NCBI GenBank assembly: GCA_963768145.1
Contig: CAVYHK010000033.1
Coordinates: forward strand, 227,756 to 291,755
Source of the DNA: an uncultured Bacteroidota bacterium
GTDB lineage: Bacteria > Bacteroidota > Ignavibacteria > Kryptoniales > JAKASW01
Length of the DNA: 64,000 nucleotides
Direction of reading: 5' to 3'
Positions 18,653-42,205 of this stretch are shown here, piece by piece; the first letter of the stretch is position 1, and the number at the start of each line of letters is the position of its first letter. The notes below the pieces were generated by a model. It saw only the letters and a list, made by a program, of their open reading frames with translations. It was not told the DNA's origin and did no database searches. A program made the translations under genes and the position numbers.

Positions 18653-19057
18653 ATGCGTTCAATCTTGATACGTAGCTCACTAATTGGCGTTCTAAGTGGC
18701 TTGCTTTGTTTCGAGCCGATCATGGCTAAATCTCTCCAGTCGGAGACCGATGAAGCTTGCGTCGCAGCTCAAGCGGACGCCGAAGAAGAAACGAGCGGTG
18801 CGTTGTGGTTCCTAGCAGGTTGTGCTCTTACATGGGTTGGAGTAGTAGGAGCCTACGTCATTAAGCCAAGCCCAACAGCATCAAAACTTCTGGGAAAGTC
18901 GCCGGAATACGTCGCGGCTTATACAGATTGTTACAAGGACAAAGCTGTGTCCATTCAGACAAAATGGGCGTGGATTGGATGTGGTGTGACCGGTGTAGTG
19001 TATCTAGTATACATAATTGTTGTTGCGGCCGCTGCTGCCAGCACCACCACCAGCTAA
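18653..19057 (+). CDS. small membrane protein, unknown function
   Basis: 134 aa with a signal-like N-terminus and two hydrophobic helices. GGGAGG sits 8 nt upstream of the ATG. Confidence 0.5.
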   Translation: MRSILIRSSLIGVLSGLLCFEPIMAKSLQSETDEACVAAQADAEEETSGALWFLAGCALTWVGVVGAYVIKPSPTASKLLGKSPEYVAAYTDCYKDKAVSIQTKWAWIGCGVTGVVYLVYIIVVAAAAASTTTS

Positions 19058-19530
19058 CGGTTCCTAAACAGGAATAGCTTGTTGGAAGATTTATTGTGAT
19101 GCCACGCTACACGACAAATGATATCCCATTTGCAAGTCTCACAATCTGCATGGAGCGCCTAGAGGTTTGTCAATAATTGCCGCGCGCCGAAAACATGCAG
19201 GACGCCCGATGACTTGTTCAAACAATCTCGGTAGTTGAGACACTAGACAGCAAAATGATAGGATATTCGGGGTCTACAGTCTTGTAGCGTGGCAGATCAA
19301 TTGCCAACTTTAAATGTGATGCTTTTTATCAAACAAAACGGAATTAATTCCCTTCAAGCCAAGGATCCGTGGGGCGGAGGGGGTACATGTACAATCACCC
19401 AATTCTGGACGGTGCTATGATTTCCAGGGTCACCTTTTGCGACAGCATATTCAAAAGACGCGGAGAGGGGGTACGAATTCAAATCCTATTCGAGTCCCTG
19501 CACGCCAGGCGAAAGATTTGTTGAGGGGGC

Positions 19531-20217
19531 ATGTTGATATATCTTTTTCTGTTGACATTGCTGCAGACAGCTTCACCTTTTCAAACCTTATGCGTCAGAT
19601 TTGCGAGGGAATTCACTGATGCCGCGGGCAATAAGGATGCATCGAAAGGCATTGTGTACTTCAGAGAAAACGATAGATTGGTCGTCAGAGTTTACGATCC
19701 GATAAATCAAGTCATGGTTCTTACGGGAAAAACCATGACGATTTATTATCCCGACCAGAAAAAGGCGTTTGAGGTCCAAGCAGAAACCCCATTCGAACTC
19801 CCCTTTGTTTCCACCATTACCGCTCCCAATCATCCTAACTACGGACTGACTGAGATGGGCTATCAATTGGAGAAAACCGAACGGAACGGTGACACGTTGA
19901 CAAGTCTCTGGCGACCTCCTGCAAATGCTCGAAAGGTTGTGGGAATGTTCAAGCTGGTGGAATGCAGAAGAAAGCTGCTCTACGCTCAGTCATTTAAACC
20001 TAACGGACAAATCTCTACTACAGCACTATTTTCGAATTATGAGAAATGTGGAAGCATGACTATTGCTTTAGATGTCACTACTTACAATCATAGGTCATCG
20101 GGAACTGAGACTGAGATAATACATTTTGAAAAACCCGAATTCGACACGGCGATACCAGATTCAATCCTGAATTTCAAGATTCCGCCTGATACCCCGATGA
20201 AGCATATACAATGGTGA
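19531..20217 (+). CDS. LolA-like (lipoprotein-carrier fold) periplasmic protein
   Basis: Signal peptide, then ..F.REFTDAAGN..SKGIVYF.ENDRLVVRVYDPINQVMVLTGKTMTIYYPDQKKAFEV, which matches the LolA/LppX-type N-terminal pattern. Motif-level call only. Confidence 0.45.
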   Translation: MLIYLFLLTLLQTASPFQTLCVRFAREFTDAAGNKDASKGIVYFRENDRLVVRVYDPINQVMVLTGKTMTIYYPDQKKAFEVQAETPFELPFVSTITAPNHPNYGLTEMGYQLEKTERNGDTLTSLWRPPANARKVVGMFKLVECRRKLLYAQSFKPNGQISTTALFSNYEKCGSMTIALDVTTYNHRSSGTETEIIHFEKPEFDTAIPDSILNFKIPPDTPMKHIQW

Positions 20218-20615
20218 TGCTTATGCGGAAGCTCTCGAGCCTTACAGTATGGCTGATTTTTGTTCGCGTGTCTTCTGCACAGACAGCGAGTGATTTGGTT
20301 TGGGTTAACAATGATTCCCTTTTTACTGCAAGAGACAATGATTCCTACGCGTCGCACAACTCAGAGGAAAACTTGGCGCCACAACGGGTAGGGACAGACA
20401 TAATCAGTCTATATCAGTTTTTCATTTCTTCTCAAGACCGTCCGTCCTGCATTTTCGAACCAAGCTGCTCTCATTACGGGCAGTTGGCACTCCAAAAGCT
20501 TGGACTCGTGGAGGGCATTCTATCGACTGCCGACAGATTTTTGCGCTGCAATGGATGGGGCGAAAAACCATACAATTTGGATGCGAAGACAAACAAGTTC
20601 ATTGATCCCCCGTAG
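20211..20615 (+). CDS. YidD-like (DUF37, membrane-protein insertion efficiency factor family) domain protein with N-terminal signal peptide
   Basis: IISLYQFFISSQDRPSCIFEPSCSHYGQLALQKLGLVEGILSTADRFLRCNGW aligns to E. coli YidD [43 protein letters not shown]. Confidence 0.7.
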   Translation: MVMLMRKLSSLTVWLIFVRVSSAQTASDLVWVNNDSLFTARDNDSYASHNSEENLAPQRVGTDIISLYQFFISSQDRPSCIFEPSCSHYGQLALQKLGLVEGILSTADRFLRCNGWGEKPYNLDAKTNKFIDPP

Positions 20616-21516
20616 ATTTAGGAAGTTTAACTCCGCGGTCTTCTGTTTCTGGAGCAGCATCTTCATAGTCTCTGGCGTCTTTACCAACGCATTTTCACAG
20701 ACGAATAAAACAGATTACTACACCCCCGAAAGGACACTCGGTTTTGCCGAGTGGTTGTACCATTTTGACCACGACTACACAAGGGCTGGCGACGAATATG
20801 CACGCTATTTGTTTCTGGTGGAAAGCCCAAACGACTCCGTACAATTTCGCCTGGCTATGTGTCGCAAGAGAGAGGGCAAGCTGTCAATAGCCGATGGATT
20901 ATTCGAAAGAGTAACCTCGATCGATTCCTGTTCTGTGTGGAGAAGCAAAGCGGTTTTCCAATCGGCCCATATTTCATTCCTACAAGACAATTACACGAAC
21001 TCACTCGGGATTCTGGCAAAAGAACTAGGCGCGGCCTGCAACTTTGAACCAGGTAGGTTCAGACAGCTTCAAGTGTTTGATCTTCTGGCGGGTAAACAAT
21101 GGGATTCAGCGAGAGTAGCTATTGACATGGGGAAATCGTATCTGACAAATGAAGAAGAACTCACCTTGAGAATGCTTCTTGGGGTGGGGAAGGCACTGCC
21201 GCACAAGAACCCACTCGTTGCTGGTTGCCTTTCGGCTTTGGTACCCGGGCTGGGAAAGGTTTACACATCCGAGTGGCAGGACGGGGTTTATTCGTTTATC
21301 TATGTGGCGCTTACAGGCTACTTGTCTTACACGGGCTTTCATAGTGCGGGTGTGCAGTCCTGGAAGGGCTGGATTTTTGGGACCCTCTCCGCAACTCTTT
21401 ATGCTGGAAATGTCTATGGCTCCGCGAAAAGTGCAACGGAATTCAACATTAGGGTCAATTCCAATTTCCTTGAAAACATAAAGCACCTGTGCGAAGGGAT
21501 CGGGATTGAAGAATAG
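20581..21516 (+). CDS. secreted helical-repeat protein with C-terminal PGLGxxY membrane module (paralogue A)
   Basis: Start is taken at MRRQTSSLIPRRF.. (signal peptide ..GVFTNAFSQ). The C-terminus reads CLSALVPGLGKVYTSEWQDGVYSFIYVALTGYLSY...YAGNVYGSA. Confidence 0.55.
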   Translation: MRRQTSSLIPRRFRKFNSAVFCFWSSIFIVSGVFTNAFSQTNKTDYYTPERTLGFAEWLYHFDHDYTRAGDEYARYLFLVESPNDSVQFRLAMCRKREGKLSIADGLFERVTSIDSCSVWRSKAVFQSAHISFLQDNYTNSLGILAKELGAACNFEPGRFRQLQVFDLLAGKQWDSARVAIDMGKSYLTNEEELTLRMLLGVGKALPHKNPLVAGCLSALVPGLGKVYTSEWQDGVYSFIYVALTGYLSYTGFHSAGVQSWKGWIFGTLSATLYAGNVYGSAKSATEFNIRVNSNFLENIKHLCEGIGIEE

Positions 21517-21528
21517 CGTCGACACAGA

Positions 21529-22431
21529 TTGTTGCAGCATAATCTGATGTATCAGGCACGGTACCATCTTCTGTTATTCTCCTTCACCCTTCTATTTCAG
21601 CCTCACGTTCTTACAGCTCAGCCAACCGTTTTGCTGGAGTATGCTGATTCTCTGGCTGCTACCAGACAGTTCTCTGCGGCAATAACAGAATTCAAGAGGT
21701 TTGTCTTCTTCCATCCGGCCGACCGAGAATTGTATTGTGCGTTCATGGGTATAGGTCTAAGCTATAGGGAAGAGCATGATTACTCACATGCAATCAGCTA
21801 CCTTCAATCATCACAGGCTTTAGCACCAAGCGACAGTATTTATGAGGCGGCATCATTGGAGATTGCACTAACTTATTTCGCATCTGGAGACGCGGGATCG
21901 GGCTTGTTAGAGGTGGAAAGAGTCTTAATTGACTCTTCTTCACCACAGTTTGTAAGAAGAGCCTTGTTTGTCAAGCTCGTGGCACTAATCAAGAGGCACG
22001 ATTGGGAACAAGCTGATTCAACCCTACATACATTTCTTCAGCAGCCAGAAAGTAAGTCCAAAGACTTCTTGTATCGCGCCGTCGATTCCGCCATCGTGGT
22101 CGCTAAGGAGACCTCTCTGTTTTCAGAAGATGCTGCCGAATGGTTGTCAGCATTTTTCCCGGGACTAGGCCAACTTTATTCGGGTGATTATAAGAACGCA
22201 CTAAACGCGTTAGCCCTGGATGGCCTGCTGGGCTACTGGGTGGTAGATTTGATTGCCACCCATCAATATTTTGACGGTGTTATGCTGTTCAGTGGGGCGT
22301 TCCTTCGGTACTACCTGGGGAACCAGTACCGGGCTGCTCTGATTGCGCACGAAAAAAATGAAGAGATTGAGCAGGAAACCGAAAACAAAATACTTAATTT
22401 GCTATCGAAGACAATTGGAAGGGGAGAGTAG
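21529..22431 (+). CDS. TPR-like protein with C-terminal PGLGxxY membrane module (paralogue B)
   Basis: Signal peptide ..PHVLTAQ and TPR-like helices. The C-terminus reads WLSAFFPGLGQLYSGDYKNALNALALDGLLGYW...YLGNQYRAA. Confidence 0.55.
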   Translation: MLQHNLMYQARYHLLLFSFTLLFQPHVLTAQPTVLLEYADSLAATRQFSAAITEFKRFVFFHPADRELYCAFMGIGLSYREEHDYSHAISYLQSSQALAPSDSIYEAASLEIALTYFASGDAGSGLLEVERVLIDSSSPQFVRRALFVKLVALIKRHDWEQADSTLHTFLQQPESKSKDFLYRAVDSAIVVAKETSLFSEDAAEWLSAFFPGLGQLYSGDYKNALNALALDGLLGYWVVDLIATHQYFDGVMLFSGAFLRYYLGNQYRAALIAHEKNEEIEQETENKILNLLSKTIGRGE

Positions 22432-41848: not shown

Positions 41849-41923
41849 TGGGCTCTACTGGATTCGAACCAGTGACCTCTCGCGTGTGAGGCGAACGCTC
41901 TGAACCAACTGAGCTAAGAGCCC
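41849..41923 (-). tRNA. tRNA-Val (anticodon CAC), canonical cloverleaf
   Basis: GGGCTCT-TA-GCTC-AGTTGGTTCA-GAGC-G-TTCGC-CTCACAC-GCGAG-AGGTC-ACTGG-TTCGAAT-CCAGT-AGAGCCC-A. Confidence 0.92.
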
Positions 41924-41989
41924 GCGTCACCTTGAAAATCTATCATCAAGCAAAAAAAGAGCAGGCTTCCACACACTACAATCGTTCTG

Positions 41990-42064
41990 TGGGCTCTATC
42001 CCGCAAAGCGGGATGACCTCTCGCGTGTGAGGCGAACGCTCTGAACCAACTGAGCTAAGAGCCC
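41990..42064 (-). ncRNA. tRNA-Val(CAC)-like unit with non-canonical T-arm (ATCCC-GCTTTGC-GGGAT)
   Basis: 58/58 identical to 41849-41923 outside the 17-nt T-arm, which is replaced by a different 17-nt hairpin. Confidence 0.7.
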
Positions 42065-42130
42065 GCCTCACCTTGAAAATCTATCATCAAGCAAAAAAAG
42101 AGCAGGCTTCCACACACTACAATCGTTCTG

Positions 42131-42205
42131 TGGGCTCTATCCCGCAAAGCGGGATGACCTCTCGCGTGTGAGGCGAACGCTCTGAACCAACTGAGCTAAG
42201 AGCCC
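42131..42205 (-). ncRNA. tRNA-Val(CAC)-like unit with non-canonical T-arm (identical to 41990-42064)
   Basis: 75/75 identical to the previous unit. Confidence 0.7.

Follow-up and report, generated by a model that had tools for sequence, protein, structure and literature searches.

A conserved envelope gene cluster centred on a predicted exported YidD paralogue and its TPR-PGLG partner

In a stretch of 64,000 nucleotides (nt) from an uncultured Bacteroidota bacterium (contig CAVYHK010000033.1, positions 227,756 to 291,755 of the forward strand, which we call the window), a compact run of plus-strand genes encodes what we regard as a hitherto overlooked setting for YidD, and it is this gene cluster that is discussed here. 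Its invariant core consists of two genes, g2, which encodes a predicted exported YidD paralogue, and g3, which encodes a TPR domain followed by a helical module that opens with the motif PGLG, and these two are translationally coupled and sometimes fused. A LolA-like gene (g1) and a gene for a small membrane protein (up) form an accessory pair, up being found only where g1 is present, and a paralogue of g3, which we call g4, completes the set in the window. The arrangement is conserved far beyond chance and is a real operon. The genes and their parts are as follows.

18653-19057, plus strand: up, 134 amino acids (aa), small membrane protein, taken from the list of open reading frames (ORFs)
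19058-19530: up-g1 spacer, 473 nt, intergenic
19531-20217, plus strand: g1, 228 aa, predicted exported LolA-superfamily protein, modelled as an unclosed beta-barrel
20211-20217, plus strand: g1/g2 junction ATGGTAA, in which the g1 stop overlaps the g2 start
20211-20615, plus strand: g2, 134 aa, predicted exported YidD paralogue, with a signal-like segment at residues ~1-23 (possible cleavage between VSSA and QT), a conserved extension at 24-61 and the YidD core at 62-121 (nt 20394-20573)
20581-21516, plus strand: g3, 311 aa from ATG, TPR-PGLG protein, with a signal-like N-terminus (possible cleavage after residue 39, between AFS and Q), a TPR-like solenoid at 49-204 (nt 20725-21192) and the PGLG helical module at 209-311 (nt 21205-21513)
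21547-22431, plus strand: g4, 294 aa (300 aa from TTG 21529), g3 paralogue, with a signal-like N-terminus, a TPR domain and a PGLGQLY module at residues ~190-275 (nt 22114-22371)

The four genes g1 to g4 are consecutive plus-strand ORFs in the six-frame list, with the same coordinates and junctions that an earlier note on this DNA, made from the letters alone, had reported. The overlap is 7 nt between g1 and g2 and 35 nt between g2 and g3, the open frame of g3 reaching upstream as far as 20500, and the gap between g3 and g4 is 12 or 30 nt. For g4 the start is probably ATG 21547, because the orthologue in the closest relative is called as 294 aa and the exact 300-aa product is absent from the protein collection, in which the exact products of g1, g2 and g3 are all present. 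The minus-strand ORFs of the region are shadows of the plus-strand genes, and the cluster genes are under purifying selection: in the plus frames, the ratio of nonsynonymous to synonymous substitution rates (dN/dS) is 0.08-0.37 for all five genes when the window is compared with a relative of 89-95% identity, with values against the nearest relative of 0.08 for g1 and 0.22 for up.

How tightly the genes are bound together is most evident at their junctions. At the border of g1 and g2, the sequence ATGGTAA, ATGGTGA or ATGGTAG is found in 68 of 73 loci from several phyla, and it is because of this overlap of stop and start that g1 ends in Trp almost everywhere and that nearly all g2 homologues begin with Met-Val; the overlap therefore implies translational coupling. 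The g2 stop and the g3 start overlap by 11, 4 or 1 nt in most loci, and in a few cases nature has gone further and joined the two genes into one. Three such natural fusions (P0149, P0173 and P0182; 413-451 aa) have a hydrophilic linker and no hydrophobic segment between the domains, the signal peptide of g3 having gone, and two more come from metagenomes (L093:223-1572 and L094:5902-7224), the latter flanked by up, g1 and g4. Since the domains are fused without a hydrophobic segment between them, the YidD and TPR domains should reside in the same compartment and act as one unit.

Word-indexed protein searches were shallow, yielding five matches for g2 and three for g1 (the homologue P0002 is 89% identical to the g2 of the window), and the depth of our comparison comes from a genome scan, with one genome per species and the closer set of g3 homologues (alignment A2) as query, together with custom HMMs that were built from seed members and run on all ORFs of the loci. 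The scan found a g3 relative in at least 575 species genomes; by their labels the best 80 of these are mostly Poribacteria, complete chromosomes such as OZ244616.1 and OZ242349.1 included, joined by WOR-3, Cloacimonadota, Aminicenantes, Calditrichia, Gemmatimonadota, Ignavibacteriales and a few unclassified or doubtfully labelled metagenome-assembled genomes (MAGs). The order and strand up-g1-g2-g3(-g4) are conserved across 93 loci, with examples labelled Ignavibacteriales, Poribacteria, WOR-3, Cloacimonadota, Calditrichia, Aminicenantes and Gemmatimonadota. Among the genome loci that could be judged, the gene immediately before g3 is g2 in 70 of 74 and the one immediately before g2 is g1 in 60 of 67; g4, as a second paralogue, occurs in 22 of 72 and is mostly missing from Poribacteria, and the contexts of distant g3 relatives again have a YidD gene directly upstream. 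Other recurrent neighbours reach at most 44 loci, as against 49-92 for the five families, in a set that consists mainly of Poribacteria genomes.

A second and independent set of loci, drawn from metagenomes, was seeded on YidD-core peptide patterns and queried with an alignment of the three fusions (a metagenome scan with the fusion P0173 alone gave no match), and it shows up-g1-g2-g3-g4 once more, with g3 next to g2 or fused to it in 42 of the 54 loci that could be judged by script and in about 48 of 54 after allowing for ORF-boundary artefacts. The proposal in the earlier note that the genes form one operon is thus borne out by conserved order, by stop/start overlaps and by natural g2-g3 fusions, and the co-occurrence that it had proposed to look for across genomes of the FCB (Fibrobacterota-Chlorobiota-Bacteroidota) group is widespread and extends beyond that group, to Poribacteria and Aminicenantes. 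The outcomes that the note had named as fatal to its reading, a lack of such co-occurrence in other genomes or a first gene unlike LolA, are both contrary to what we see. It had also been unable to assign the genes to a described system, and indeed we found no description of the gene set in the literature searched. An origin in defence or in mobile elements was considered and rejected, there being no PADLOC defence, plasmid or phage match for the cluster.

YidD is near-universal in bacteria and yet its molecular activity is poorly understood. According to the family descriptions of PF01809 and TIGR00278 it is a membrane-associated factor that aids membrane-protein insertion, and its gene usually sits in the order rnpA-yidD-yidC. 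That g2 belongs to this family is clear from its matches to PF01809 (64.3 bits, cut-off 27) and TIGR00278 (66.5 bits, cut-off 40), both over residues 60-121, a core which holds the cysteines C80, C86 and C113. In an alignment of 21 cluster-linked g2 homologues (A4), C80, C86 and the pair D108-R109 are invariant and C113 is kept in at least 90%, and the YidD signature as a whole (Y68, Q69, S73, C80, F82, C86, S87, D108, R109, R112 and C113) is intact. What precedes the core is a short hydrophobic segment, then a conserved extension of 35-50 aa with the motifs DLxFIxxxNP and ETSExKL, and then the amphipathic helix that is common to canonical YidD. We therefore agree with the earlier note that an unmistakable YidD core lies here behind a predicted export signal and an additional N-terminal region, a description for which the family matches, the alignment, our heuristic for export signals and the wider subfamily all speak.

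That subfamily is sizeable. In an exhaustive HMMER search, the g2 profile matched 10,893 representatives of the YidD family at E<=1e-3, of which 1,523 remain at E<=1e-10; the best 150 matches are of the predicted exported type, nearly all of them 125-190 aa long and aligned over the whole profile, extension included, and a strongly hydrophobic N-terminus is present in 133 of the 136 top representatives with a recognisable core, the median length before the core being 68 residues. Taken at face value, these matches define a putative exported YidD subfamily of at least 150 clusters at 50% identity, and possibly of the order of a thousand. A canonical YidD of 74 aa from the same metagenome scan (L157) looks quite unlike the g2 type, and a profile search of Protein Data Bank (PDB) sequences returned no solved YidD relative. 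The setting of g2 differs from the rnpA-yidD-yidC order: neither rnpA nor yidC is found near it within the window, by ORF list or by profile matches, and its neighbours are instead the LolA-like and TPR-PGLG genes, likewise in 70 of 74 related loci. By sequence, then, g2 is a true YidD-family member that falls outside the usual size, export status and neighbourhood of the family.

Some relatives of g2 deserve mention in their own right. A few exported, extended YidD genes that keep the DLxFI motif stand alone (L134:5791-6270, L140-L142 and L148:5791-6312), so that the link between g2 and g3 is strong and not absolute. In WOR-3-type and unclassified MAGs (L018, L037, L086 and L087), tails rich in Cys, Gly and Ser are found at the C-termini of both up (for example SCGSGSDGGSSCGSGSGG) and g2 (for example CCYQTGSCNLKKGCE), and may point to a periplasmic feature common to the two, either metal binding or disulfide formation. 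A divergent version of the cluster with a GC content of 54% (L010:4378-7606) has a TM2-domain gene at the position of up, and its protein at the position of g2 is 114 aa long, has neither a signal peptide nor any of the three cysteines, and shows only weak collinearity with the YidD core (E 0.002, from a search with a single sequence).

The most consequential property of g2 is the side of the membrane on which its core is predicted to be. In all five families, the uncharged stretch at the N-terminus has a median length of 12-16 residues, which is the length of a signal peptide rather than of an anchor, with a net positive charge before it, a net negative charge after it and an AXA-like site nearby; for the g2 family itself the median is 16 residues with the same charges and site. 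The signal-like N-termini that the earlier note saw on all four proteins are thus recovered by the heuristic. A charge bias of this kind indicates an orientation with the N-terminus inside and the C-terminus outside, and therefore the bulk of each protein would be outside the cytoplasm whether the segment is cleaved or not. This predicts that the YidD domain of g2 is on the periplasmic side, opposite to canonical YidD, and such a reversed topology, if correctly predicted, is its main departure from the canonical protein.

The partner of g2 is a helical protein of two parts. The AlphaFold2 model of g3 is all-helical, with a predicted local distance difference test score (pLDDT) of 87.4, and comprises a signal-like helix, a TPR-type solenoid (pLDDT ~95) and the C-terminal helical module, which in the model takes up residues 211-309; its matches in the PDB are generic TPR analogues only, the best at an E of ~1e-3. 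Residues P222, G223, G225, Y228, Y274, N277 and G280 are invariant in the g3 family, as are P205, G206 and G208 in that of g4. TPR repeats are also detected in g4 (TPR_14, 25.1 bits, cut-off 23.5) and in 21 of 23 members of its family (TPR_2); further matches of g4 to BamD/YfiO and tol_pal_ybgF are weak and far below cut-off, and three members weakly match TPR_Slam. Profile-profile alignment of g3 with g4 by hhalign (probability 99.95%, E 2e-38, 257 columns) marks the two as full-length paralogues, with AxxEYxRYxF, PGxGxxY and YxGN as common motifs. The idea that g3 and g4 are paralogues with TPR-type N-terminal regions therefore survives on three counts, the alignment, the g3 model and the TPR matches.

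For the PGLG module, the nearest families are DUF5683 and TM2. DUF5683 (PF18935, cut-off 26.7) is matched at 16.5 bits by g4 and 12.4 bits by g3, over the first 20-40 positions of a 151-position model, and it is weakly matched by 21 of 23 g4 members (best E 4e-5) and 4 of 17 g3 members; TM2 (PF05154) is matched by one g3 relative, and we found no function for DUF5683 in the literature searched. By analogy with these relatives, for which the same is assumed, the module is probably embedded in the membrane. Of the earlier claim that g3 and g4 have a C-terminal PGLG membrane module in common, the motif part stands in full, its residues being invariant and common to both proteins, and the membrane part is likely, for a stretch that is only moderately hydrophobic.

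The accessory gene g1 is recognised by fold rather than by sequence. Its match to Pfam LolA (PF03548) is sub-threshold at 17.8 bits (cut-off 23.6, E 0.003), as are those to LolA_like (PF17131; 15.8 bits, cut-off 30) and TIGR00547 (20.9 bits, cut-off 112, E 2e-4), and weak matches among 18 members of the g1 family number four for LolA, four for DUF4292 and two for LolA_like. With the family profile, the best matches among PDB sequences are LolA chains (E 0.013). The AlphaFold2 model is all-beta, with about 14 strands, a pLDDT of 62 and a predicted template modelling score (pTM) of 0.60, and a Foldseek search with it returned 67 PDB matches at E<=1e-3, of which the 50 listed first consist almost entirely of LolA, LolA-like, LolB or RseB proteins. 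At their head stand 3buu (E 2.9e-10, TM-score 0.57), LolA3 of P. gingivalis (9tp6, TM-score 0.60), 3bk5 and 4z48, with TM-scores in the range 0.57-0.61. On this evidence g1 models as a half-barrel of the LolA/LolB superfamily, in keeping with the LolA-type pattern that had been noticed in its letters, namely G-K-T-x-x-I-Y-Y-P in mid-protein and F-x-I-P-x-x near the C-terminus. LolA3 was undetected in PDB sequence searches from g1 and from a Bacteroidota-like g1 relative. The heuristic finds a short hydrophobic region with an AXA-like site in 70 of 70 g1 homologues, and the g1 of the window has no positive residue before that region.

The gene that we call up was mentioned in the earlier note as a separate small membrane protein, set off from the four by a gap of 470 nt. 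The gene and the gap are there, and the separateness is not: up is a fifth conserved family of the cluster, co-varying with the LolA-like gene, present in 42 of 60 loci with g1 and in none of the nine without it, and immediately preceding g1 in other phyla, where it is present once or as up to five copies in tandem. Its protein has a signal-like N-terminus, a hydrophobic segment, a conserved loop (LLGKSPEYVAAYTDCYK) and a C-terminal transmembrane segment; in the family alignment (A6), Y86, Y90, Y94, G56 and G109 are invariant and K82 and S83 nearly so, and no Pfam or NCBIfam family matched it. In four Poribacteria loci (L026, L028, L063 and L064) up is expanded to three to five tandem paralogues, and several Poribacteria paralogues lack a signal-like N-terminus and begin with an acidic segment (MNNEQHQ...DAxxDV), so two topological classes of up seem to coexist.

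The spacer between up and g1 (473 nt) is of similar length and 82% identical in the nearest relative (L001) and ~30-100 nt in most other lineages. A decayed gene copy and a structured RNA were considered as its content and rejected, since a six-frame search of positions 19058-19530 brought up nothing left over from any of the cluster families, Rfam gave no match at E<=1, and the folding is not unusual (z-score -0.10). One weak sigma-70-like site at 19235-19264 is no more than chance would give, the promoter and terminator scans being at chance level and designed for lineages other than that of the host.

What might such a cluster do? Like the author of the earlier note, we would see in it a periplasmic or outer-membrane assembly or trafficking module, and the mechanism that we favour, at a probability of roughly 40%, is that of a complex at the periplasmic face of the membrane, with hydrophobic cargo to handle or insert, in which an exported YidD is tethered by g3/g4 and is served by an accessory pair of LolA-like carrier and up client. 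In this scheme g3 and g4 would be anchored in or on the cytoplasmic membrane by the PGLG module and their periplasmic TPR surface would hold the exported YidD domain, which, having kept its amphipathic helix and three-cysteine core, would work on the outer leaflet and help hydrophobic segments or acyl chains to partition into or out of the bilayer. The half-barrel of g1 might then shield the hydrophobic cargo in the periplasm and hand it to the complex or take it from there, and the multi-copy up proteins would most likely be dedicated clients or membrane subunits. The cluster encodes no ATPase, energy source, transporter or biosynthetic enzyme, and neither lolCDE nor lolB is seen in it or its flanks; because no ATPase is encoded, any transfer would have to be energetically downhill, as is the transfer from LolA to LolB.

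Several observations weigh against this proposal, and we list them together. Both g1 and up are missing from 9 of 69 loci, and because of this a carrier step cannot be the core activity. The PGLG module is moderately hydrophobic, with Kyte-Doolittle 19-residue means of 1.0-1.5, and has no clear positive-inside bias. The signal and topology calls come from a simple heuristic and not from SignalP or DeepTMHMM, and confidence in the g1 model is moderate, since it was built from an alignment of only four sequences. If the signal peptide of up is cleaved its conserved loop would be cytoplasmic, which weakens the model of a direct periplasmic client. The stand-alone exported YidD genes adjoin two M16 peptidases, a radical-SAM/SPASM enzyme and other unrelated genes. 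Finally, the cargo, the membrane location and the direction of transfer are matters that we infer.

Of the other explanations, the one that comes through best, which we nonetheless consider unlikely, is that the cluster makes an envelope scaffold or tether, the TPR-PGLG proteins and a membrane-binding YidD forming a structural complex in the periplasm (compare CpoB/YbgF and BamD) with g1 as a structural or lipid-sensing subunit. It would account for the lack of an energy source or transporter, and fusions and coupling do point to a stable complex; the weak matches of g4 to BamD/YfiO and tol_pal_ybgF would also fit, but these are far below cut-off and of a kind that any TPR protein typically gives. 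The cluster has, moreover, no peptidoglycan-binding or outer-membrane-anchoring domain, and the LolA fold and the YidD domain are known for hydrophobic ligands and membranes, not for scaffolding.

A rather less probable idea is that g2 is a dedicated insertion or folding factor for the PGLG helices of g3 and g4 once their TPR domains have been exported, the real activity of the system lying in the TPR-PGLG, LolA-like and up proteins. Canonical YidD is annotated as an insertion-efficiency factor, g2 and g3 co-occur strictly, and the PGLG module is unusually weak in hydrophobicity and placed C-terminally after a large exported domain. Covalent fusions, however, are more easily understood if the complex is permanent than if g2 is a chaperone that comes and goes; moreover, the extension conserved at the N-terminus of g2 hints at docking, and a few exported YidD genes occur without g3.

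It is very unlikely that the cluster is a sensor of envelope stress or lipids, in which g1, like RseB/MucB, would detect lipid or lipoprotein in the wrong place, with the membrane proteins passing the signal on. RseB is among the structural matches of g1, at ranks 33 and 49, but these matches are much weaker than the LolA-like ones, g1 is missing from the nine loci mentioned above, and the conserved neighbourhood of the cluster includes neither a sigma factor or anti-sigma factor nor a kinase or protease. Still harder to credit is an exported membrane-damaging g2 with the other genes as partners in secretion or immunity, a notion that the predicted export of a membrane-active YidD core and the old name of PF01809, 'haemolytic domain', might invite: in all these phyla the operon is single-copy and chromosomal and evolves under purifying selection, we saw neither polymorphism of the toxin kind nor any association with plasmids or phages nor a match to defence systems, and fusion to a TPR-PGLG protein would retain the domain on the producer cell. 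The last and weakest explanation, an ordinary YidD with an uncleaved anchor that is a chance neighbour of unrelated envelope genes, has the canonical sequence of the core in its favour and is effectively refuted by the comparative data, since synteny, overlaps and fusions persist from phylum to phylum, the charge bias that we observe would leave the domain outside the cytoplasm even if the anchor stayed uncleaved, rnpA and yidC are not nearby, and the canonical L157 (74 aa) looks quite different.

The surroundings of the cluster in the window are unrelated to it, with YdjM-like and DoxX genes before it; the genes that follow it lie on the opposite strand and encode an alpha/beta-hydrolase/peptidase, SdpI/DUF1648 and ArsR-type proteins. 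Elsewhere in the window, the minus strand of 41849-42205 has three tandem tRNA-Val(CAC)-like genes spaced by 141 nt. Copies 2 and 3 differ from copy 1 in the T-arm alone, where CTGGTTCGAATCCAG gives way to another hairpin, TCCCGCTTTGCGGGA, which is without the T-loop consensus; ARAGORN calls copy 1 only, and the Rfam scores are 70.5, 44 and 44 bits.

A further thought, which we hold tentatively and with less conviction than the mechanism itself, is that the cluster represents a new and widespread envelope machine, in which a YidD fold on the periplasmic side works with a TPR-PGLG partner and a dedicated LolA-fold carrier. In that case YidD would be more than an accessory of YidC: it would be a general, energy-independent catalyst by which hydrophobic segments or lipids enter or leave a bilayer, from either face, and its obligatory partners and fusions would provide the first tractable handle on the biochemistry of the YidD domain. 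These partners and fusions, together with the predicted reversal of topology, furnish testable predictions on what the domain binds and where it is active. The carriers of the cluster belong to phyla in which envelope biogenesis has hardly been explored (Ignavibacteriota, Poribacteria, WOR-3, Cloacimonadota, Calditrichota, Gemmatimonadota and Aminicenantes), two new protein families, the TPR-PGLG proteins and the up small membrane proteins, are defined along the way, and a dedicated LolA-fold paralogue is added to the specialised LolA-like carriers of uncertain cargo, such as LolA2 and LolA3. Should the function prove to be purely structural or redundant, the value would mainly be one of better annotation.

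How, finally, does the cluster compare with what is known? The folds are familiar ones, and it is their combination, the reversed topology predicted for YidD and the obligatory partners that are, as far as searched, undescribed. With canonical YidD, g2 has in common the ~60-residue core with its YQxxIS, CxFxPSCS and G...G...DR..RC stretches, a C-terminal D-P, three cysteines and the amphipathic helix before the core. It differs in being of a type that measures 125-190 aa against 70-90 aa, in its signal-peptide-like N-terminus and 35-50 aa extension (DLxFIxxxNP, ETSExKL), in facing the periplasm, as predicted, rather than the cytoplasm, and in lying between LolA-like and TPR genes, to the latter of which it is sometimes fused. 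The small membrane proteins of the DUF5683 and TM2 families have, like g3 and g4, a PG(L/x)GQxY(x)G motif that opens a helical module rich in Gly and Tyr, but in g3 and g4 the module comes last, after a signal peptide and a TPR domain of 150 residues, and the matches are sub-threshold. Slam, BamD and CpoB/YbgF may be likened to g3/g4 as periplasmic TPR platforms with a membrane-associated part, here beside a LolA-type carrier; the membrane part of g3/g4, however, is helical rather than a beta-barrel or lipid anchor, and the similarity is that of TPR proteins in general.

The orphan LolA-like proteins (3buu, which is NE2245, 3bk5 and 4z48, a DUF1329 protein) and LolA3 (9tp6) are exported proteins with an unclosed beta-barrel, a fold that the g1 model shares, and their size of ~240 aa is close to the 228 aa of g1; g1, for its part, falls below every curated cut-off and has YidD-like and TPR-PGLG genes as partners. 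LolA3 of Bacteroidota is itself a paralogue without known function or phenotype that does not interact with LolB, and LolA-fold proteins, of which specialised paralogues exist, bind acyl chains and hydrophobic ligands (PMC11885536, PMC13103446). The LolA2/LolB2 pair of the flexirubin locus consists of specialised LolA-like carriers (NF053544; PMC11885536), and in Bacteroidota LolA_like genes adjoin MMPL/ABC exporters (PMC10434189); we considered whether these LolA_like genes might belong to the same cluster as ours and rejected this, for they are part of MMPL/ABC clusters and unrelated. The flexirubin and MMPL/ABC clusters encode biosynthetic enzymes or energised exporters and the g1-g4 cluster neither, yet the principle is shared, a LolA-fold protein being kept within a dedicated operon, presumably for a hydrophobic cargo of its own, and in concept nothing known comes closer to the system described here than these LolA-like carriers with a cluster to themselves.

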